Source of the DNA: a virus
Reading direction: 5' to 3' (one strand)
Length of the DNA: 45,006 nucleotides
Virus genome (UHGV): UHGV-0250353
In this document: positions 1,482-29,923 of the stretch, piece by piece
Layout of the letters: every line of letters begins with the position of its first letter
How positions within the stretch are numbered: the first letter of the stretch is position 1
Notes under the pieces: model-generated
What the model was told of the DNA's origin: nothing
Seen by the model: the letters and a program-made list of their open reading frames with translations, nothing else
Database searches by the model: none
Program-made: the position numbers and the translations under genes

Positions 1482-3791
1482 TTAATACCCCGGCTGACCG
1501 CGAGTAGAGCGGCGAGCTTTAGAAATCGGTGAGTTGTTATCCTGTAACTGCGACGCTACTGTTTCACTGATTATAATACGTAAACGCCCTTCGTCATCAC
1601 GTTCTGTTACAGCAGAATCTACGCGCCCCGTAGTGTTATTAACTATAGTGACGTTATCACCGCCGGACTGGCCACCGTTTTGCCCCATAATCTCTTTCAT
1701 CTGCTGCGCAGTTCGTACGCGCGATGCGCCAGCAGGCATGATAACTTCCGGTTTGCCGCGTTCTGCGATGGTAGACATCTGCCCCGCTGATAACTGACCG
1801 CCCTGCTCACGTGCCGAGCGGATTTTGGCGATATTAGCCAGCCCCGCGGCAACGGCAGTACCTGCGGCAACCGGTGCCAGGAATGGGCCGACAACCGGTA
1901 TCGCTGCGGTAGACTTATATGCTTCGATAGCCGAGGTGTATGTTGCGATAGTGGCCTGGGCAATAGCAAACGCTTTATACGCGGTGGACGCCTCGCCAAA
2001 TGCCGTTTTAGCATTAGCTGCCATGTCACCGAAAGAACTACCTAAAGCCTCGGCGCGCTTCGTAGCATACTGCTCATTGATAGCGTTAAGCGCCGCCTGA
2101 TACTGTTCCTCGTTAATAAGCCCCTGTTCTCGATACTTATCAGCGACAGCCAGTTTCTGCTGTTCCTGGATGTCGAGGAGCTCAAGCTCAGCGGCGTTCT
2201 GCCCCATAATCTGGGCCATGAAGTCATCGCCTTTCTGCTGCTTTTCCTGCTGCTCTTTTCTTTTCTTATCCAGTTCTTCCTGTCTGGCCTGCTCGGCTGT
2301 GAGCATAATTTGAGTTTTGGCGTTTTCGTATTGCTGCTGGCTTATCGTTCCTGCGCGGTTGAACTCTTCAAGTTTTGCCAGTTTCTGCTCTTCGGCCGCC
2401 GTGATGCGAGAAATTTCATCTCCGGTTGTACGGTCAACCGTAGCAAGGAAATCTTCCGCGGCTTTCTTCTGGCGTTGTGCCGCCGTTTCTTCACGTTTGG
2501 CCTGCGCCGCCAGACGTTTCTCGTTCGATTTAGCCTCGCGGTCTGCCTTCTCTTTCTCGGTCTTGTCAATGCGGGCGATGTCTTGCTGTGCTTCCGTGTC
2601 ACGAGCAGCATTATACGCGGCGATCTGTTCTTTGGTTACAGCTTCACGTTTAGCAAACGCCTGCTTATCCAGTTCAGCTTGCGCCCGGATGCGCTCACGG
2701 TCGCTTAAGATGGCGATTTGCTGATTCTTGACGATAGCTTCGTTCTGCTCCTGGAACCTCTGCGTGGTTGAGTTAACGTTACGACCGAGATTCTTTTGGG
2801 CTTCCGCCGCTGCGTTTGCGGACTTCTCCGCGTTCTCCAGTGCTGTGGCGTTCTTGTTGGCGTTGTCTGTCAGGCGGATAAGTTCCGGATTCAACTGTTT
2901 TGTGTTACCGAGCCAGTCGGTAAACACATCGGCGATGCGGCGGGCATTCTCGGCGGTTGGCTCTTTGTTAAACGCGCTCTGCGCCGCTATCATCTCCAGC
3001 GCCTGGTCACGGTTAACCCCGAACTTACTGCTAAGCTCCGCTATATTCTGCGCCAGCATGTTGACGCCTACGATGTTACCCTCGTAAGTGCCGCCAAGTT
3101 TTTCTAACGTGTCGCCTACATCCGCACCCTTAGAGACCAATGCATCGTACTGGCTAATAGCGGATGCCGTGGAGGCTTTCCATGTCTCCCATGACTCGGC
3201 GTCCTCGCGGACAGCTTTAGCTGTTTGCTGCGCGATAAGGTCTGCGTTAGCCTTAGCCAGAGCAAGCTGAGTCTCCGCCGCTTCTCTGCTGATTTGGGTA
3301 AGCTGGATAAGGCCGTCTGTCAGTTCGAGGGAGCCAGATGCCGTTTGCTGGAAGGTGTCTTTTAACTGTTTCTGCGCGGCTTCCAGGTCTTTTGAACTGC
3401 CTTCTGCTTCGGTTAGCGATTTGTACAGGACACCGCCGATTGCCGAAGCAAGAGCAATCACAGCCCCGAGCACCGCGCCACCAGGTCCGAAAGCACCAGC
3501 AAGCTGCGAACCTTGTTGCCCGATTGCTACGAATGCAGACGTGCCGGATTGCAACTGGACTACCATGTCCTGCACCTGGAAGCCAACCTGCCCTGCAGCG
3601 TTACGGAACTTAGCGAAACCGTCGGAGGCCGCTTTAGACGTAGCGGAGTTTACTTTATTAACGTCCGGCGTTAGTTTGTTTACGGATGTGTCCGCCCGGT
3701 CTGCGGATGCCGCCATAGCGTCAAGCTGTTTAGCGGCCGCATCAGCGCCTTCTGTTTTTACTCTGGCAATTAGGGAAGCCGTATCAGCCAT
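1482..3791 (-). CDS. tail tape measure protein
   Basis: about 770 aa Ala/Gln/Glu-rich coiled-coil protein immediately downstream of chaperone pair; ATG 3791 with GAGG RBS preferred over TTG 3806 used by ORF track. Confidence 0.8.
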   Translation of the reverse strand: MADTASLIARVKTEGADAAAKQLDAMAASADRADTSVNKLTPDVNKVNSATSKAASDGFAKFRNAAGQVGFQVQDMVVQLQSGTSAFVAIGQQGSQLAGAFGPGGAVLGAVIALASAIGGVLYKSLTEAEGSSKDLEAAQKQLKDTFQQTASGSLELTDGLIQLTQISREAAETQLALAKANADLIAQQTAKAVREDAESWETWKASTASAISQYDALVSKGADVGDTLEKLGGTYEGNIVGVNMLAQNIAELSSKFGVNRDQALEMIAAQSAFNKEPTAENARRIADVFTDWLGNTKQLNPELIRLTDNANKNATALENAEKSANAAAEAQKNLGRNVNSTTQRFQEQNEAIVKNQQIAILSDRERIRAQAELDKQAFAKREAVTKEQIAAYNAARDTEAQQDIARIDKTEKEKADREAKSNEKRLAAQAKREETAAQRQKKAAEDFLATVDRTTGDEISRITAAEEQKLAKLEEFNRAGTISQQQYENAKTQIMLTAEQARQEELDKKRKEQQEKQQKGDDFMAQIMGQNAAELELLDIQEQQKLAVADKYREQGLINEEQYQAALNAINEQYATKRAEALGSSFGDMAANAKTAFGEASTAYKAFAIAQATIATYTSAIEAYKSTAAIPVVGPFLAPVAAGTAVAAGLANIAKIRSAREQGGQLSAGQMSTIAERGKPEVIMPAGASRVRTAQQMKEIMGQNGGQSGGDNVTIVNNTTGRVDSAVTERDDEGRLRIIISETVASQLQDNNSPISKARRSTRGQPGY

Positions 3792-4170
3792 CTTCTCTGC
3801 CCTCAAATATTCCGTCTAAGCCCATGATAACCTCGGCTTCGAACAAACTTATGCCGTAACCGGCGACATCACGAAACGCTACCAAATCTTGCCATTTGAG
3901 CGCATCGCGCGGGATTATAACGATAGTATCATCTGTTTCGCGCTGTAGGAATTTAATGGCACGGTATTTCTCGAACACGTCGATAAGAGAAACGGGGCAT
4001 TCTGGCCCCGTCGCTTCTTTCATCTGCGGTTCTTTAATCACACCCATTGCGATCAAAGCTGCTTGATGCCCCGCCGCGATGTCGTCGAATTGCTTACGTT
4101 TCTGGCGGTCGACAAAGCACCATTGCGCAAATTCATACAGCGCTTTTACTTTTCCGAGAGTTTCTCGCGG
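3784..4170 (-). CDS. tail assembly chaperone, -1 frame extension (GT-like fusion partner)
   Basis: reverse frame -1 relative to 4146..4562 is open from 4170 to stop 3784..3786; no ATG of its own (track start is TTG 4056); overlaps GGAAAAG at the last codons of upstream ORF. Confidence 0.4.
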   Translation of the reverse strand, partial: PRETLGKVKALYEFAQWCFVDRQKRKQFDDIAAGHQAALIAMGVIKEPQMKEATGPECPVSLIDVFEKYRAIKFLQRETDDTIVIIPRDALKWQDLVAFRDVAGYGISLFEAEVIMGLDGIFEGREDG

Positions 4171-4562
4171 CTATCGGTGTGGTGTTTAACTACGGCTTCT
4201 GCCAGTCCGCTGTACTGGTCTAACAGGTTAGCCAGCGCCTCTTTGCTGAACGGCTCGTCGAATGACCAACCGGTGACGATGTCGACAGCGAGCTGCTTGT
4301 TCAGGTCCATCACCCGCCAGCCCTTCTCATCGTTATAGCGCGCCCAGTTATTCAGCGCCTCGCACTCTTTATCTAATGGCGCAAGTTCTTCCGTAAGGCG
4401 TCGAATTGCCGTTGTGTAGGCGCGGCCTGCACGAACACCCGCATCACAATCGGGGCCAATGACCTGCAGCCATTCGCCGGAGTCTTTACCGCTCGGCAGG
4501 AGGATAGGCATTTTAGTACCAGTAGCGTGGCGGTCGGCAAAATAAAAATCAGAAAGTTTCAT
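4146..4562 (-). CDS. tail assembly chaperone (G-like)
   Basis: 138 aa ORF, ATG 4562 with AAGGA RBS; position between major tail protein region and tape measure; followed by -1 frame ORF. Confidence 0.55.
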   Translation of the reverse strand: MKLSDFYFADRHATGTKMPILLPSGKDSGEWLQVIGPDCDAGVRAGRAYTTAIRRLTEELAPLDKECEALNNWARYNDEKGWRVMDLNKQLAVDIVTGWSFDEPFSKEALANLLDQYSGLAEAVVKHHTDSREKLSEK

Positions 4563-4669
4563 TCTTTGATCCTTTGGTTAAGAGGTTACAGGTTAAGGTT
4601 GACGCGCCAGACGGGAACCACCCGCTTTTCGTGTGCGACACTAGGCGCAAACTTATTCTAGCACACTAC

Positions 4670-4698
4670 TTGCACACCCCAATATAATAGGGTACTAT
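4670..4698 (+). promoter_or_regulatory. sigma70-like promoter TTGCAC-N17-TACTAT with palindromic operator TAATAGggtaCTATTC (4685..4700)
   Basis: hexamers and spacing read directly; same architecture as minus-strand promoters at 24746..24774 and 26253..26281. Confidence 0.5.
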
Positions 4699-4728
4699 TC
4701 ACCTACACCAACAATGGAGGGATTTAAA

Positions 4729-4920
4729 ATGTCAAGTTTACCAGTTTCCTTAATTCTGTTTGCACTTCTCGCTTATTTCGCGCCTTTCCTGGTTGCGTAC
4801 TTCCGTAATCATAAAGCGAAGTTGGCAATATTCATGGCTAACCTGTTTCTTGGCTGGGTTCTGCTGCCGTGGGTATTTATTTTAATATGGGCTTGCAACT
4901 CGAACGTGAAAGAGAAGTAG
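4729..4920 (+). CDS. small two-TM membrane protein, superinfection-immunity (Imm)-like
   Basis: GGAGGG RBS then ATG 4729; two hydrophobic helices; FRNHKAKLAIFMANLFLGW...WVFILIWA resembles Imm-type small membrane proteins (from memory, not searched). Confidence 0.45.
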   Translation: MSSLPVSLILFALLAYFAPFLVAYFRNHKAKLAIFMANLFLGWVLLPWVFILIWACNSNVKEK

Positions 4921-4958
4921 GCTACTATAAGACAAATCCTAAACACGAGGAAGTAAGC

Positions 4959-6089
4959 ATGGCCCATAAGAAAATAACCGACGAACAGTTACAGGAAGAA
5001 TTGAACGCCGGAATGAAGAATGCAGACATCGCCCGTAAATACGGCATCTCAGACCGCGTAATTCGTATCCGTAAAGCGAAGCTGGCTAAGAAAGGCGTAG
5101 GCCACGGGCGTGACGTTAGTCACCTTGTCCCGGACGGCTACAAAATTAAAGGGACCTCGTCACTGGTGGACGAGTTCGGCAACACTAAACTTCAATGGGT
5201 TAAGACCGACACCGATGCCGAACGTCAGGTCGAGTTGATGAAAGCCGTAATCGAAGGCATGAAGTCGGAGATTACTCCAGTTGCACCAGTTAAAGCCGTT
5301 CGCGCCAAACGTGACGATAAACTACTCAATCTTTACACGGTATCTGATTTCCATCTCGGTATGCTGGCCTGGGCCGACGAGAGCGGCGACGACTGGGATA
5401 TGAAGATTGCGGAAGACCTGTTCTCTCGCTGGTTCGATGCTGCGTTCCAGAAAGCGCCAGATGCAGGAACAGGAGTTATTAACCTGCTTGGCGACCTTGC
5501 GCACTTCGATAGTCTGGATGCCGTTACACCTGCAAGCGGCCATGTTCTTGACGCGGACACGCGCTATCAGAAACTGGTCCGCTACATGATTCGTATGGTT
5601 CGCCGTGTTATTGATATGGCGCTGGTTAAGCATAAAAATGTTCGCTTGCTTATCGTGCAAGGGAACCACGACGAAAGTGGAATGATTTGGTTAGCTGAGA
5701 TGTTCAGTACGCTGTACGACAATGAGCCGCGTGTGTTTGTCGATACTTCACCAGATGTTTACAAGATGGTGCAACACGGCAAAACGACGCTGTTCTTTAC
5801 ACACGGGCATAAATGCCGGTTTGAGGTTGTCGAACCAATTATGATAGCTAAGTTCAGAAAAGCATTTGGAGAAAGCGAGTACAGTTACGCGCATGTAGGG
5901 CATCTCCACCATCAAAAGATTGTAGAAAGTAGGAATATGGTAGTGGAGCAACATCGCACTCTCGCGGCGAAAGATGCATATGCTTCCCGCGGCGGGTGGA
6001 TGTCTAAGAGGTCCGCTAATGTCATAACCTATAGTTCAGAGTTCGGGGAAGTAGGTAGGCTTTCAATCTCACCGGAGATGCTAAGATGA
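4959..6089 (+). CDS. HTH domain fused to calcineurin-like metallophosphoesterase
   Basis: GAGGAAG RBS then ATG 4959; motifs DFHLG, GDLAHFD, GNHDES, THGH, GHLHH in canonical order; N-terminal ADIARKYGISDRVIRIRKAK HTH-like. Confidence 0.7.
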   Translation: MAHKKITDEQLQEELNAGMKNADIARKYGISDRVIRIRKAKLAKKGVGHGRDVSHLVPDGYKIKGTSSLVDEFGNTKLQWVKTDTDAERQVELMKAVIEGMKSEITPVAPVKAVRAKRDDKLLNLYTVSDFHLGMLAWADESGDDWDMKIAEDLFSRWFDAAFQKAPDAGTGVINLLGDLAHFDSLDAVTPASGHVLDADTRYQKLVRYMIRMVRRVIDMALVKHKNVRLLIVQGNHDESGMIWLAEMFSTLYDNEPRVFVDTSPDVYKMVQHGKTTLFFTHGHKCRFEVVEPIMIAKFRKAFGESEYSYAHVGHLHHQKIVESRNMVVEQHRTLAAKDAYASRGGWMSKRSANVITYSSEFGEVGRLSISPEMLR

Positions 6090-6556
6090 AGTACCTTGAT
6101 GTTTCAAAACAATTTAAATACTGCCCTGATACGGGGCAGGTTACCAGGATATCTACTGGTGCTGAGGTTGGTACGGTTGGTGTAAGAGGATATCTGTGCT
6201 GCGGTATGGGTGGTAAAACAGTATATGTCCACCGCGTAGCATGGTGTCTTTATAATAAATGTGACTTAGACAGGAAAACACAAATAGACCACATAAACCA
6301 TAACAGGCTAGACAATAGAATAGAAAATCTACGCGCCACCGACAATACAGGGAACAGTAAAAATAAAACTATGAGAAAGATAAATAAATCCGGGGCTACA
6401 GGTGTAAGTTTCCACAAAGCCGCGGGTAAGTGGCGCGCGTTTATAAAAGTTAACTACAAACAAGTGCATTTAGGGCTTTACGACGATTTTGATGTAGCGG
6501 TTGCCGCGCGTAAAGCCGCTGAGAGTAAATACGGTTTTCATGAAAACCATGAGTAG
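6086..6556 (+). CDS. HNH homing endonuclease with AP2-like domain
   Basis: HRVAW...QIDHINHNRLDNRIENLR HNH motif; GVSFHKAAGKWRAFI AP2-like; ATGA overlap with upstream gene. Confidence 0.75.
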   Translation: MKYLDVSKQFKYCPDTGQVTRISTGAEVGTVGVRGYLCCGMGGKTVYVHRVAWCLYNKCDLDRKTQIDHINHNRLDNRIENLRATDNTGNSKNKTMRKINKSGATGVSFHKAAGKWRAFIKVNYKQVHLGLYDDFDVAVAARKAAESKYGFHENHE

Positions 6557-6567
6557 GAGAGCTATTT

Positions 6568-6798
6568 ATGACTTCAAAATATAACCGCACAATGACAAAT
6601 ACCCACGGCAGCACTATGACAGTAGACGTTTATGATGTGCTGCGGGCCTTCGACATCCGCGACCCAGCACTGCAACACGCTTTGAAGAAATTATTGTGCA
6701 TGGGCTTGCGTGGACACAAAGACACCGGGACGGACTTAGCGGAAGCAATTGAAAGTCTGGAGAAGTTACGAGAGTACCGGAGTAATATTGATGAGTGA
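6568..6798 (+). CDS. hypothetical protein
   Basis: ORF track 76 aa, RBS GGAG upstream, inside island operon. Confidence 0.5.
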   Translation: MTSKYNRTMTNTHGSTMTVDVYDVLRAFDIRDPALQHALKKLLCMGLRGHKDTGTDLAEAIESLEKLREYRSNIDE

Positions 6799-6967
6799 AA
6801 ATATTATGAAAACGATATATGTAATCCGTGTATACGACGAAGAATGGGACGAGTGGGTTGATATTTACGCTGTAGGTAGTAAGGAAGAGGCCTCTAAAGA
6901 GATGGCAGAACGGAGTGACCGAGGTCAGTTAACTAACTTCTACGAAATGCCATTCAAAAGTGAGTAA
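6791..6967 (+). CDS. hypothetical acidic small protein
   Basis: in-frame ATG 6791 overlapping stop of upstream gene; ORF track frame 6749..6967. Confidence 0.45.
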   Translation: MSENIMKTIYVIRVYDEEWDEWVDIYAVGSKEEASKEMAERSDRGQLTNFYEMPFKSE

Positions 6968-6970
6968 GAA

Positions 6971-6996
6971 AAGGCCCCGAAAGGGGCCTTAGTTTT
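6971..6996. terminator. bidirectional intrinsic terminator AAGGCCCC-GAAA-GGGGCCTT + TTTT
   Basis: 8-bp GC stem, tetraloop, T-run on plus and A-run upstream; sits between convergent genes. Confidence 0.6.
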
Positions 6997-8167
6997 ATGC
7001 GTAGGTGATACGCTGGATAACAATAGACGACTGGTACTGATTGCCGGTAGCCTGGCCTTCGATGGACTGAGTGATTGACTCTGGTCCGCCAATCTCTGGC
7101 GTAACCGCCGTAAGTTCTGCGCGTTTCAGGCTGAAAGACATAGCCCCGTTTACCCCCGCCAGAATAGAGTTAATCTCTACCTGCTGTTCGTTGATAAACT
7201 TCTGAATCATCGCCATGTCGTACAGCTTACCGGAGATAGAGAAGGTGTTAGCCGCGCGACCACGTTCCACGAACGCAACGCTACTGTTGCCGAGTTCGAA
7301 CTGCGCAGAAGCACCGTTGTCGTTTGTGATGGTCAGAGTATCGCAACGCAACGGCGTAGAACCGTCGAACACGGACACATCTACGGATGAGAACGGCTCA
7401 TCGGTAAACGTCACCTGAGAGAAATCAGAACCTGCTGGCGGTGCAGAAAGAATCTCCTGACTTAGACCGATGAACGGGAAGCTGCCTGTCACCATCGCGT
7501 TTACGGCCTGTTCAATGGTGAATCCGGAGATTTCCACGCCTTTGGTCAACATGTACGCGTCCGGGTTCCCGCACTGTCCTTTGAACCATGTCAGGATGGA
7601 GAACGTCTTACATGCGTTACTGGTTTCCAGTTTGTCGCCGGTTTTAGCGTCGGTGGTTACAGTCTCTGCTGTCAGCGTGTGCTGAATGCCCGCACCCGTA
7701 ACTACAAGAGCAGAAACCGCGGTCACGATAAACGGTTTTGCGTTGTCGCCGGTTAAGTCGGTGAACGCAATCAGGTCGCCAACTTCTACACCGTCAGTAA
7801 TGAAGCTACCGGCAGCGCGGGTGAATGTTTTACCTGCTGGGGCGACCGTAATTTCAGCACCCGTAATCTCCACCCCATCCTGCCACGTAGAAGTCATCGC
7901 GCCCGCGAGGAAATCATCCTGGCTACGCGAGCTAAGTTCGATGGCGTACTCCCCGCTAACCTGCTTATTACCAGTGCGGATGGATGTAGTTTCACGGCTG
8001 CCGTCGAGTTCGTTGGAAGTCAGCGCATCGCGGGTTACGGCTGGAACGCCGCCCGTGTTACGCAACGGCGACCAGACCGGGTTAGTCGGTGTTACGCCCG
8101 GGGTATTTTCCACCACATAGAATTGCGCGGTATTCGCGCCCTTAAAAGGAGTTGTAGCCATATTCAC
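6995..8167 (-). CDS. major tail protein (putative)
   Basis: 390 aa Thr/Ser/Gly-rich structural-type protein; last large gene before chaperones/tape measure in transcription order. Confidence 0.5.
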   Translation of the reverse strand: MNMATTPFKGANTAQFYVVENTPGVTPTNPVWSPLRNTGGVPAVTRDALTSNELDGSRETTSIRTGNKQVSGEYAIELSSRSQDDFLAGAMTSTWQDGVEITGAEITVAPAGKTFTRAAGSFITDGVEVGDLIAFTDLTGDNAKPFIVTAVSALVVTGAGIQHTLTAETVTTDAKTGDKLETSNACKTFSILTWFKGQCGNPDAYMLTKGVEISGFTIEQAVNAMVTGSFPFIGLSQEILSAPPAGSDFSQVTFTDEPFSSVDVSVFDGSTPLRCDTLTITNDNGASAQFELGNSSVAFVERGRAANTFSISGKLYDMAMIQKFINEQQVEINSILAGVNGAMSFSLKRAELTAVTPEIGGPESITQSIEGQATGNQYQSSIVIQRITYA

Positions 8168-14632: not shown

Positions 14633-15708
14633 TATTCCCCTTTCAGATAATCAGCAACACGTTTATCGAGTTCCGCCATCTGCTTAAGCGTGAGCGGATT
14701 CCCGAAACCATCTACAGATATTACGCGAAACTCTTCCGGCGATATACCGCTGTTACGGAAAATCTTACCGCGAACAGGGCCGAGTGCTTCATCCACGAAC
14801 CATGCCGGTTGTTGTTTAAGGAACTCGTAGTAAGTAGTGTCCGCGCTTACCTGAGTACCCCCGTCGGCACCCTTAGCTGCACGTTTTGCACCTTTATCCA
14901 AGAAGTCGAACTCAGAGCTGATTACTGGCGCAGTGGTACTCCGGCAATTCGGATGTGCTGGCGGCATCGGCCCCTTACCGATTTCCCACGTCATTCCGTC
15001 TCTGGCCCTACAAATCGTACTGGTACGGCTGTCCAGCGTCGACACCCACTCGTACTTCTCGATGATGTCGTCGTTCTGGCGGTACGTCTCGTTACGGGCT
15101 TCGTTGGATATGTGAGACAGCGCGGTGCGGATTACCGTAGCCGCGTTGCGCTCAGAGATGTCGGCCAGGCCACCAGCGCCAACAACATTCTTAACAATCT
15201 GCCGTGTTGTCTGGCCTTGTACAAAGCCCATCTTAACGCCGGTTACCAGGCGCGCGACTTCTGTTTCACCCCAGCCTGACATCAGCTTAGTGAAATCAAC
15301 AGGCTTGTCGCTTAACGATAGCGGCTGAAACTCGGCAGCGGCCCACACCTGTTCAGCAGTGGGTGTAACAAATTCCGCGTCTACGTTAGCCGTCAGCGTT
15401 TTTACATTCCACTCCGCTTCATACGCCGCCAGTTCTTTAAGGTCTTCTGTCAGCTTTGTTTGCCAGTCGCCTGTAAGTCCGCTCAGTGCTTCTTCCAGGT
15501 CGCGTAACAATTTATTCAGTCGCGCAGTGCTGCGACCGTCGTCGCCGAATAACAGCACCTGCCGTTTGATTTCGTCTCGCATTTCCTGAAGAAACGGCGC
15601 AAGGTCTTTCACTTCACCGGATGCGGTGCGTTGCAGCCATATCTGGTGGCTGATTAGGGATGTAAGTAAGCTCATAGTTAAATCCTGTGGCGCTAAAGTT
15701 AATAGCAT
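14632..15708 (-). CDS. head morphogenesis protein (Mu F / SPP1 gp7-like)
   Basis: signature TSTICRARDGMTWEIGKGPMPPAHPNCRSTT; located after portal. Confidence 0.75.
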   Translation of the reverse strand: MLLTLAPQDLTMSLLTSLISHQIWLQRTASGEVKDLAPFLQEMRDEIKRQVLLFGDDGRSTARLNKLLRDLEEALSGLTGDWQTKLTEDLKELAAYEAEWNVKTLTANVDAEFVTPTAEQVWAAAEFQPLSLSDKPVDFTKLMSGWGETEVARLVTGVKMGFVQGQTTRQIVKNVVGAGGLADISERNAATVIRTALSHISNEARNETYRQNDDIIEKYEWVSTLDSRTSTICRARDGMTWEIGKGPMPPAHPNCRSTTAPVISSEFDFLDKGAKRAAKGADGGTQVSADTTYYEFLKQQPAWFVDEALGPVRGKIFRNSGISPEEFRVISVDGFGNPLTLKQMAELDKRVADYLKGE

Positions 15709-15713
15709 ACTAT

Positions 15714-15734
15714 AAGAAAGCCCCTTTCGGGGCT
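15714..15734 (-). terminator. hairpin AGCCCC-UUUC-GGGGCU after portal gene (same 18-nt sequence as 14148..14165)
   Basis: read directly; U-rich tract follows on minus RNA. Confidence 0.4.
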
Positions 15735-24745: not shown

Positions 24746-24774
24746 ATAGTAGCCTATTCTATCTCAGTGTGCAA
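24746..24774 (-). promoter_or_regulatory. sigma70-like promoter TTGCAC-N17-TACTAT with operator GAATAGtagcCTATTC (24744..24759)
   Basis: read on minus strand; identical architecture to 26253..26281 and 4670..4698. Confidence 0.45.
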
Positions 24775-26252: not shown

Positions 26253-26281
26253 ATAGTATCCTATTATGTTTGGGTGTGCAA
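26253..26281 (-). promoter_or_regulatory. sigma70-like promoter TTGCAC-N17-TACTAT with operator GAATAGtatcCTATTA (26251..26266)
   Basis: hexamers, spacing and palindrome read directly. Confidence 0.5.
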
Positions 26282-26685: not shown

Positions 26686-26829
26686 ATGAAGATTTGCCAG
26701 ATGTGTAGGAAAGAAAAAGAAGAAGGTGCATTCCTTAAACGTTATGACAGAAAAGGAACGCGTAGTTATTGCCGTGAATGTTTCAATGCATACCGCAAAC
26801 AATTAAGAGAGGCTAAGAAGAATGCATAA
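26686..26829 (+). CDS. small zinc-ribbon protein (47 aa, CxxC...CxxC)
   Basis: GAGGGG RBS then ATG 26686; hand translation MKICQMCRKEKEE...YCRECFNAY; first gene of rightward arm. Confidence 0.45.
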   Translation: MKICQMCRKEKEEGAFLKRYDRKGTRSYCRECFNAYRKQLREAKKNA

Positions 26830-27271
26830 ATACTTAGATGAGTTTCTGAAATCGTTAAACCTGATATTAGCCGAGAACCCGGGAGCGTCACTGCATGACA
26901 TTAAATCGGCAATAGAACTCGACGGGCCAATTAGTGCCGTGATTTCATTGCTTGGGTATTTCGGGGAGATAGACCGTGTTTATGATGGTAGTAAATATCT
27001 GTATTGGGTTAAAGGCGGTAAGCCATCCAATGTTATATCAGTTCCTTTTCCCGAGAAGGGCCAACTTACGGAGTTACAAAAACTAGTCTATGGAAAATGT
27101 CTTGAACAGCAAGGCCGACGCATCACCCCTAGTGCGGTATACGCCCTGGTAAAAGATGACGTCACCAATCTTGGTGCTGTCTGTACCGCTATGCGCGGAC
27201 TTTCTAAAAAAGGTTTGTTGATTAAGGTGTGTGATGGCGTGTATGCTCTTGCAGTACCAAACGCCAAATAA
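26822..27271 (+). CDS. hypothetical protein
   Basis: ORF track 149 aa. Confidence 0.55.
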   Translation: MHKYLDEFLKSLNLILAENPGASLHDIKSAIELDGPISAVISLLGYFGEIDRVYDGSKYLYWVKGGKPSNVISVPFPEKGQLTELQKLVYGKCLEQQGRRITPSAVYALVKDDVTNLGAVCTAMRGLSKKGLLIKVCDGVYALAVPNAK

Positions 27272-29606: not shown

Positions 29607-29625
29607 AAGGGGCGTTAAGCCCCTT
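29607..29625 (-). terminator. hairpin AAGGGGC-guuaa-GCCCCUU at 3' end of HTH gene
   Basis: 7-bp stem read directly; U-rich tract on minus RNA; between convergent genes. Confidence 0.45.
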
Positions 29626-29830
29626 CACCCAACGCCAGCCACTTGGCGTCTACTTGCAGCACTTCCGCCAGTTTAAACAGCGTTGCCGGGCGGACGTCCT
29701 GAGTTACCCCGAGTGCAAGCTGGTTAATCGCGCCCTGGGAAACGCCCGCAAGGACCGCCAGACGGCGCTGGGAGATACCGAGTTCTTTACGGCGTTGCTC
29801 TACACGGATGCCTAGTTCAGATGGTTGCAT
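29615..29830 (-). CDS. XRE-family HTH transcriptional regulator (Cro/CI-like, 71 aa)
   Basis: LGISQRRLAVLAGVSQGAINQLALG HTH; AAGGAG RBS; divergent from operator-bearing promoters. Confidence 0.7.
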   Translation of the reverse strand: MQPSELGIRVEQRRKELGISQRRLAVLAGVSQGAINQLALGVTQDVRPATLFKLAEVLQVDAKWLALGEGA

Positions 29831-29894
29831 GTCAATTACTCCTTAGTCAGTTGATATGTGAATAGTACCATATTAATTATTTTAGAAAAGCCCA

Positions 29895-29923
29895 TTGACA
29901 CGTGAATAGTTCGCTATTATAGT
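29895..29923 (+). promoter_or_regulatory. sigma70-like promoter TTGACA-N17-TATAGT with operator GAATAGttcgCTATTA (29904..29919); degenerate tandem copy at 29851..29879
   Basis: consensus -35, 17-nt spacer, good -10 read directly. Confidence 0.55.

Follow-up and report, generated by a model that had tools for sequence, protein, structure and literature searches.

In the virus genome UHGV-0250353, analyzed here as one stretch of 45,006 nucleotides (the window), five plus-strand genes between positions 4670 and 6997 separate the minus-strand gene for the tail tube protein from that for the tail assembly chaperone. Does this block represent a single accessory island inserted into a tail operon, as a first-pass annotation of the locus had proposed, or does it belong to the regular genome plan of the lineage? 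The interruption itself had been correctly read, in that five plus-strand genes do break the minus-strand tail operon, with all elements at the positions and in the order described. Comparison with related phages indicates that the array is the typical layout of the genera Kagunavirus and Jerseyvirus and not a one-off or recent insertion. The account that we favor, and hold to be fairly probable, is that of a lineage-typical cassette array forming one autonomous plus-strand unit, which combines a fixed frame, exchangeable slots, a promoter belonging to a palindrome-marked set and the control that we propose below.

The gene array at the tube and chaperone junction

A search of phage DNA with 3.6 kb around the unit recovered 417 matching records, with Kagunavirus giving the best matches and many Salmonella Jerseyvirus records following. 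The closest relatives are the Escherichia phages 590B, AV104 and NTEC3, at about 92-93% DNA identity across 89% of the query. Given that the top matches are Kagunavirus (Guernseyvirinae), we conclude that the window is a Kagunavirus genome. Its structural genes lie on the minus strand and take up roughly the first half, and its replication genes lie on the plus strand past 26.7 kb. The plus-strand unit converges on the tail tube gene and diverges from that of the chaperone, and its genes and their neighbors are as follows.

4729-4920, plus strand: Imm-type superinfection immunity protein, 63 amino acids (aa); the reading frame is also open from the ATG at 4714
4959-6089, plus strand: helix-turn-helix (HTH) metallophosphoesterase (MPE), 376 aa (phrog_704, E 1e-165)
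6086-6556, plus strand: free-standing HNH_3 and AP2 homing endonuclease, 156 aa (PF13392, E 3e-10; phrog_99, E 1e-55)
6568-6798, plus strand: conserved 76-aa protein with a beta-hairpin and three helices
6806-6967, plus strand: 53-aa accessory open reading frame (ORF), matching no Pfam or PHROG family
6995-8167, minus strand: tail tube protein, flanking gene (PF18906 Phage_tube_2, E 9e-38)
4146-4562, minus strand: tail assembly chaperone, flanking gene (PF08748, PF23812, phrog_15027)
3784-4056, minus strand: frameshift extension of the chaperone (phage K1H annotates the joined product)
1482-3806, minus strand: tape measure gene

An array of this kind occupies the tube/chaperone junction in every Kagunavirus and Jerseyvirus locus inspected, with varying content; tube proteins of at least 60% identity are found in 495 phage records, as against the 417 DNA matches for the array region. 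The order of genes at the junction in representative phages is given below.

590B: 108-aa protein, MPE, HNH, 76-aa protein
K1H: 108-aa protein, MPE, HAD_PNKP-type phosphatase, P-loop protein resembling deoxynucleoside monophosphate (dNMP) kinases
SZH-1: 108-aa protein, MPE, 76-aa protein, 58-aa protein
fBC-Eco01: Imm, MPE, 66-aa protein, 76-aa protein, 52-aa protein
fTaEco01 and K1B4: Imm, MPE, phosphatase, kinase
SE131: Imm, MPE, a different HNH, 76-aa protein, Ant
SE2: Imm, MPE, methylase, 76-aa protein, Ant-like protein
fmb-p1: 109-aa protein, MPE, 68-aa protein (a shortened call of the 76-aa gene), DNA-binding protein

The published junction modules of these two genera (590B, NTEC3, K1H, K1G, fBC-Eco01, SE2, SETP3) share with the window their place, strand, promoter, MPE, 76-aa protein and terminator, and in 590B and NTEC3 the DNA match of about 92-93% includes the HNH gene. 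The window pairs Imm in the first slot, as found in K1G, EC3-1 and fTaEco01, with the HNH, 76-aa and 53-aa genes. Unlike the window, 590B and K1H carry in the first slot a 108-aa protein with a signal peptide, which replaces Imm in some relatives; in K1H, K1B4 and fTaEco01 the Pnk-type phosphatase and the dNMP-kinase-like protein stand in place of the HNH and 76-aa genes, and SE2 has an additional methylase and an Ant-like gene. What emerges is a fixed frame, consisting of the palindrome-bearing promoter, the HTH-MPE gene, the 76-aa gene and a two-way terminator, into which the variable genes are set. The slot after MPE may be empty or contain a small ORF, an HNH gene, or the phosphatase and kinase-like pair, and the last slot holds a 53-aa ORF, an Ant-like protein or a methylase.

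Outside the two genera the junction is differently occupied. That of the Cornellvirus Shemara contains a single opposite-strand gene for a 120-aa protein (locus positions 6025-6387, minus strand), the promoter of which is without the palindrome, and in Vibrio phage 1.168.O, whose tube protein is 33% identical, the tube, chaperone and tape measure genes follow one another in unbroken order. The presence of one gene in Shemara and none in Vibrio phage 1.168.O leads us to regard the junction as an old insertion point in the subfamily. Thus, the expectation that related phages would show an uninterrupted junction holds for the distant Vibrio phage and fails for the Kagunavirus and Jerseyvirus loci inspected, all of which are occupied.

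Fixed genes and exchangeable slots

The five genes differ in their distribution and degree of conservation. MPE is 85-98% identical in Kagunaviruses and the Jerseyvirus fmb-p1; for the Salmonella phages SE2 and SE131 the value is 55%. A word-indexed search seeded with a diverse alignment returned only relatives of more than 93% identity, and an exhaustive search of representatives, used in its place, placed the family at 4693 clusters of 50% identity; 2042 phage records contain it. The family reaches the Drexlerviridae (about 45% identity), Dhillonvirus (73%), and Vibrio, roseophage and Campylobacter phages. The gene is on the main strand in each of the three settings inspected: a Dhillonvirus, in which it separates the lysis genes from that of the small terminase; a Drexlerviridae phage, in which it has replication genes on one side and the holin gene on the other; and a Vibrio phage, in which it follows the gene for an OB-fold protein.

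The 76-aa family is comparably widespread, with 774 phage records that include Dhillonvirus, Drexlerviridae, Acinetobacter, Vibrio and 60-kb phages. Its members are 89-100% identical between E. coli and Salmonella phages, which exceeds the values for MPE (55%) and the tube protein (about 71%). It matched no Pfam family and gave no informative fold match. Hits to PHROG families that covered the C-terminal part of longer profiles had raised the idea that this ORF is a remnant of the P-loop gene of K1H; the idea was rejected, as BLASTP gives no alignment between the two and the ORF is full length and conserved to the extent just given. Similarly unsupported is a likeness to DUF3310, which one GenBank annotation had suggested, since neither the protein nor 31 of its homologues match such a Pfam model at E values up to 1. 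We also observed that in SE2 a homologue (91% identical; locus positions 7079-7306, plus strand) lies beneath an annotated minus-strand "hypothetical protein" at 7060-7650, and this GenBank call is probably wrong. Judging from these patterns of conservation, MPE and the 76-aa protein are conserved genes of the lineage.

The HNH gene presents a different picture. Its AP2 domain scores E 1e-3, below the cut-off of that model. It is inserted exactly between the stop codon of MPE and the start of the 76-aa gene, and the 3' end of MPE is altered beside the insertion. In SZH-1, which is without the HNH gene, the MPE stop codon overlaps the start of the 76-aa gene (ATGA); fBC-Eco01, likewise without it, has an unrelated 66-aa ORF at that place, and 590B has the HNH gene. 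Proteins of at least 95% identity occur in 39 records from phages of both E. coli and Salmonella, invariably encoded next to MPE, and reach 99.4% identity across genera whose tube proteins are about 71% identical. The gene shares with free-standing HNH-AP2 homing endonucleases its HNH_3 and AP2 domains, intergenic position, presence or absence in near-identical genomes, altered flank and near-identity across diverged hosts, features which mark it as a mobile element. The 53-aa ORF is kept as an ORF in SZH-1 (98% identity) and fBC-Eco01 (65%) and occurs in just 23 records, all of the Kagunavirus type. Homologues of Imm were recovered from 366 phage records, of which about 350 reach at least 60% identity. 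On this comparative evidence the cargo of the array, whether accessory, mobile or exchangeable, comprises Imm, HNH, the slot after MPE and the 53-aa gene.

The genes have a low G+C content (Imm 0.427, HNH 0.420, 53-aa gene 0.420, 76-aa gene 0.476, MPE 0.494); the chaperone (0.542) and tube (0.540) genes on either side are richer, as is the window as a whole (0.504). The competing explanation, namely that of a single moron-like island inserted in the tail operon, whose genes cooperate for superinfection exclusion, host takeover or anti-defence, can draw on this composition, on the unit's own promoter and terminator, on the junction being unbroken in Vibrio phage 1.168.O and holding one gene in Shemara, and on the variable presence of Imm among close relatives. 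It has to contend with an array that is fixed at the junction across two genera, with genes of unlike histories (MPE at 55-98% identity, the 76-aa protein at 89-100%, HNH at 99.4% across genera, the 53-aa ORF in 23 records), and with MPE and 76-aa families that occur commonly in other virulent phages without being part of a comparable island. Furthermore, no defence or anti-defence model was matched: the generic homing-endonuclease model, hit by HNH, is the only PADLOC model with a match among the island proteins. We therefore consider this explanation unlikely, and neither the single inserted island nor the anti-defence role suggested in the first-pass annotation is borne out.

The comparison with morons is nevertheless instructive. 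Those of lambdoid phages, as reportedly described by Juhala, Hendrix and colleagues in 2000, are said to be present or absent between adjacent genes of close relatives and typically to be expressed from the prophage. The unit resembles them in comprising extra genes of deviating base composition that lie between structural genes with their own predicted promoter and terminator, and to this extent the moron-like architecture attributed to it stands. Unlike morons, the whole unit is not a presence/absence element among close relatives, being fixed in two genera of virulent phages, built around conserved lineage genes and served by the promoter type of the phage's non-structural regulon; moron-like behavior is seen at single slots only.

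Two further loci of the window deserve mention. At 822-1472 on the plus strand, directly past the 3' end of the tape measure gene, lies another free-standing gene for an HNH-AP2 endonuclease, distinct from the first (216 aa; phrog_953, E 7e-65; G+C content 0.424); no corresponding insert is present in K1H, 590B and SZH-1, where the tape measure gene directly adjoins the tail gene that comes next. A 47-aa cysteine-rich ORF (26686-26829, plus strand) heads the plus-strand replication block and shows weak similarity (E 1e-5 to 3e-4) to zinc-finger portions of PHROG families of the HNH/endonuclease VII and Lar-like kinds; the 149-aa ORF that follows it (26822-27271) has no PHROG or Pfam match.

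Promoter, palindrome and terminator

The regulatory elements of the unit, together with the other sites that bear on them, are listed here.

4670-4698, plus strand: island promoter, with -35 hexamer TTGCAC (4670-4675), 17-nt spacer and -10 hexamer TACTAT (4693-4698); predicted start near 4705
4686-4699, no strand assigned: palindrome AATAGGGTACTATT (AATAG-N4-CTATT), putative operator, overlapping the -10 hexamer of the island promoter
Starts at 4686, 24745, 25061, 26252, 29905, 32650 and 36426: exact copies of the palindrome, all intergenic
29861-29874: copy of the palindrome with one mismatch, intergenic
29615-29830, minus strand: 71-aa XRE/Cro-type HTH protein (PF01381 HTH_3, E 1e-12; repressor families phrog_4 and phrog_8)
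6971-6990, no strand assigned: two-way intrinsic terminator AAGGCCCC-GAAA-GGGGCCTT, 8-bp stem with six GC pairs and a GAAA loop

The island promoter lies 30 nt ahead of the Imm start. It agrees with the sigma-70 consensus at 3/6 positions of the -35 and 4/6 of the -10 hexamer (7/12), which is why a generic consensus scan does not report it. The same 29-mer type recurs at 24746-24774 and 26253-26281 on the minus strand (4 matches against 0.38 expected), the promoter is kept in 590B, K1H, SZH-1, fBC-Eco01, SE131 and SE2, and in fBC-Eco01 its site is annotated as the PHIRE "phage promoter 3". This recurrence and conservation argue that the promoter is real, and at the level of sequence they uphold the description of the unit as having its own promoter with an operator-like site.

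The palindrome AATAG-N4-CTATT has seven exact copies in the window, as against 0.02 expected by chance, and every one of them lies upstream of non-structural genes, where it overlaps the -10 or the spacer of a promoter. At three sites it lies over the -10 of TTGCACAC-type promoters, which face the island and two minus-strand clusters of small genes at 24-26 kb, and at three others it fills the 17-nt spacer of promoters of the form TTGACA/TTGACG and TATAGT that face plus-strand genes of the replication region. Its half-sites are invariant, its centre is variable and it takes two registers relative to the hexamers, a combination that fits a protein-binding site and not a part of the core promoter. 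Among the relatives scanned, fBC-Eco01 has seven exact copies and 590B, K1H, SZH-1, SE131 and SE2 have one each in the island promoter; none was found in the Dhillonvirus, Drexlerviridae and Vibrio loci scanned.

In the paper on fBC-Eco01 (PMC9825357), a PHIRE motif tgAATAGTa-ccTATTat-T with seven copies was ascribed to a phage RNA polymerase; no phage RNA polymerase is listed in the annotation of that genome. The motifs there mostly stand before non-structural units, namely the Imm module, an HTH gene, early small genes and two opposite-strand mini-units in the structural module, and one falls inside a gene of the replication region. The window offers a possible cognate regulator in the 71-aa XRE-type protein, the sole minus-strand gene within the replication block, upstream of which lie two palindromes (29861-29874, with its one mismatch, and 29905-29918). 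The protein is 94% identical in fBC-Eco01, where a copy of the motif is again annotated upstream. From this arrangement we infer that it is a candidate binder of AATAG-N4-CTATT, and the palindrome set and the XRE gene probably make up one regulator-operator circuit for early and replication transcription.

As a separate observation, a degenerate palindrome, AATAGCATACTATA, occurs at 15701-15714, in the interval that separates the portal and head-morphogenesis genes. It directly adjoins a hairpin terminator and has no gene to drive. At the equivalent place fBC-Eco01 has an opposite-strand gene with an intact motif, and the copy in the window may be the relic of a lost cassette.

At the other end, the unit closes with a hairpin situated 4 nt past the stop codon of the 53-aa gene and 5 nt past that of the tube gene, with T-runs on both strands (AGTTTTAT on the plus and TTTTCTTACT on the minus strand). 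The two strands fold at -18.6 and -15.4 kcal/mol (z about -4.3 and -4.5), and 0 of 200 shuffled sequences were as stable. An identical hairpin follows the tube gene of Shemara, and fBC-Eco01 has terminators annotated on both strands at the equivalent place. The hairpin, its double T-runs and the shuffling result confirm the prediction that a strong bidirectional terminator ends the island.

Putting these elements together, we posit that the host sigma-70 RNA polymerase would start transcription of the island at about 4705, alongside the other early or middle promoters that bear the palindrome, and that a dimer of the XRE-type protein would bind the palindrome over the -10 and shut the unit off later. 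The terminator would prevent antisense read-through from the island into the tube gene, and would also attenuate late transcription past the tube gene.

The proposed tie of the island to the early regulon holds as regards the promoter, which shares its palindrome and type with those of the small-gene clusters (24.7 and 26.2 kb) and its palindrome, in another register, with those of the replication genes, and goes no further, the timing having been read from promoter type. This is one of several points that weigh against the account that we favor. The early timing of the island is drawn only from its promoter type, and the -35 hexamer of that promoter agrees with the consensus at just half of its positions. 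The palindrome may just as well serve as an activator site or as a linker for recombination. In Shemara no homologue of MPE, Imm or the 76-aa protein was found in the 8.5-44.3 kb searched, so that these genes do not seem to be shared by all Guernseyvirinae. Nor does the model account for how the chaperone and tape measure genes come to be transcribed through or beyond the island. Finally, RNA-seq of phage K1B4 (PMC12645636) placed the Imm gene (045) in the last-peaking class, with the DNA polymerase and methylases, and the capsid and tail genes in the middle class. As that study used a multiplicity of infection of 100 and a 120-min course with a latent period of 30 min, its classes do not map to early and late and neither confirm nor refute early timing; they show only that Imm does not follow its tail-gene neighbors.

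The alternative reading of the palindrome holds it to be the site of a phage activator, with the promoters being of a "middle" kind comparable to those with MotA boxes in T4, or else a recombination linker, in which case the island would be delayed or constitutive. It accords with the weak -35 (3/6) of the promoters of the island type, with the break in homology among relatives directly downstream of the palindrome, where the first slot is swapped, and with the grouping of Imm in K1B4 with the DNA polymerase and not with the four earliest genes. However, the three palindrome-bearing promoters of replication genes are near-consensus and should need no activator, the palindromes are centered near -12.5 and -18.5, a position for occlusion and not for activation, and the regulator gene lies with two palindromes (one imperfect), as seen with autoregulated repressors. 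This leaves the activator or linker a doubtful interpretation, and we retain that of an operator set.

A further feature of the upstream end is the 107-bp stretch from the chaperone start codon to the island promoter (4563-4669), which hardly varies between E. coli and Salmonella phages, occurs only once in the window and includes a plus-strand hairpin (CGGG-AACCA-CCCG-TTTT). A structured RNA was rejected as its content, with a folding z of +0.59 and no Rfam match in the whole window; it has no 12-mer that recurs beyond chance, and its inverted repeat is weak. A minus-strand chaperone promoter beside the island promoter was likewise rejected: none was found at 9/12 positions, and the candidate picked out by eye (TTGGGG, 16 nt, TAGAAT) is too weak. 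The stretch may have a part in how the chaperone and tape measure genes are transcribed.

Predicted roles of Imm and the metallophosphoesterase

The start of Imm at ATG 4729, giving 63 aa, is favored by the Shine-Dalgarno sequence GGAGGG at 4716-4721, and K1B4 and fBC-Eco01 annotate the protein at 63 aa as well. It scores 48.3 bits with PF14373 (Imm_superinfect; E 9e-13), for which the cut-off is 27.9, and also hits phrog_1039, described as "immunity to superinfection", with E 2e-23; hydropathy windows above 1.6 form two predicted transmembrane segments, at about residues 4-24 and 33-55. Imm of T4, also of PF14373, is comparable in being a small protein of the inner-membrane type with two hydrophobic helices, and the hidden Markov model match here is well above the curated cut-off; the protein of the window differs in having 63 aa and in belonging to a siphovirus with another route of DNA entry. 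By analogy with T4 Imm, we suggest that it would enter the inner membrane and block the entry of superinfecting phage DNA. The single 120-aa protein at the Shemara junction also begins with a signal peptide, and by sequence the first slot is always occupied by an envelope-directed protein, be it Imm or a signal-peptide protein, which would fit an exclusion function. Superinfection exclusion is a credible candidate role for Imm itself; its extension to the whole island, as first suggested, is unlikely. We found no measured exclusion phenotype for any Guernseyvirinae Imm in the literature.

The AlphaFold model of MPE (predicted local distance difference test score 92.7) comprises a three-helix HTH at residues 8-44, a beta-hairpin and helix at 61-103, and an MPE domain at 119-376 that is predicted to adopt the beta-sandwich MPE fold. 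Five metal motifs are discernible, namely D130-x-H132, G178-D179, G235-N236-H237-D238, H282-G283-H284 and G314-H315-x-H317, and across 72 homologues (32-51% identity) the residues that bind metal either do not vary or are conserved in at least 90%; MPE thus displays the motifs of the calcineurin-like metallophosphoesterase superfamily (DxH, GD, GNH(D/E), H, GHxH). The HTH is weakly similar to GerE/LuxR (E 0.055). Sequence and profile searches of the PDB recovered no solved relative by sequence, giving marginal HTH and SbcD/Mre11 hits (E about 1), and a Foldseek search with the model placed Rv0805, a cyclic-nucleotide phosphodiesterase, among the top hits (E 5e-8), close to Mre11.

The likeness to Mre11/SbcD and to the PolD-DP1 nucleases is limited, at 11-17% sequence identity. 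Mre11/SbcD has a capping domain and a Rad50/SbcC partner; the MPE model ends at residue 376 with no additional C-terminal domain, and the island encodes no Rad50/SbcC or SMC-like ATPase, the neighbors of MPE being Imm and HNH. Also unlike Mre11/SbcD is the unique N-terminal module of HTH and beta-hairpin. Neither the MPE family of these phages nor the tube/chaperone junction is the subject of any paper that we found. We propose that MPE may be a DNA-bound, metal-dependent nuclease or phosphodiesterase of phage DNA metabolism; HNH, for its part, would be a selfish homing element with no role for the phage.

More far-reaching, and in our estimate quite improbable, is the proposal that the MPE family constitutes a new class of phage counter-defence or host-takeover enzymes, with the island as an early unit for exclusion and counter-defence; such an enzyme could be, for instance, a DNA-tethered phosphodiesterase that destroys nucleotide immune signals or a nuclease by which T1-like and Jersey-like phages degrade host DNA. 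The narrower proposal of an anti-defence enzyme that degrades cyclic (oligo)nucleotide immune signals within a counter-defence unit is very improbable, since for all that the MPE fold includes cyclic-nucleotide phosphodiesterases such as Rv0805, and the next slot of relatives holds nucleotide or RNA-end enzymes, the gene lies elsewhere among replication and packaging genes and is near-universal there, not patchy as anti-defence genes usually are, and no link to defence was found with PADLOC or in the literature.

As a discovery the value of the array is small, the module having already been annotated in hundreds of GenBank phage genomes. The published "phage RNA polymerase promoters" can be re-read as a probable operator set for an XRE-type regulator, and the HTH-MPE and the 76-aa protein are abundant phage families that deserve biochemistry. 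The array provides a worked example of how small virulent siphophages keep opposite-strand non-structural genes in a structural operon, driven from the type of promoter and putative operator that marks the non-structural regulon and closed by a two-way terminator. Kagunavirus phages have been described in the BASEL paper as attractive models for synthetic biology, and the junction, as a natural, tolerated cargo site with exchangeable slots, is of interest for their engineering.

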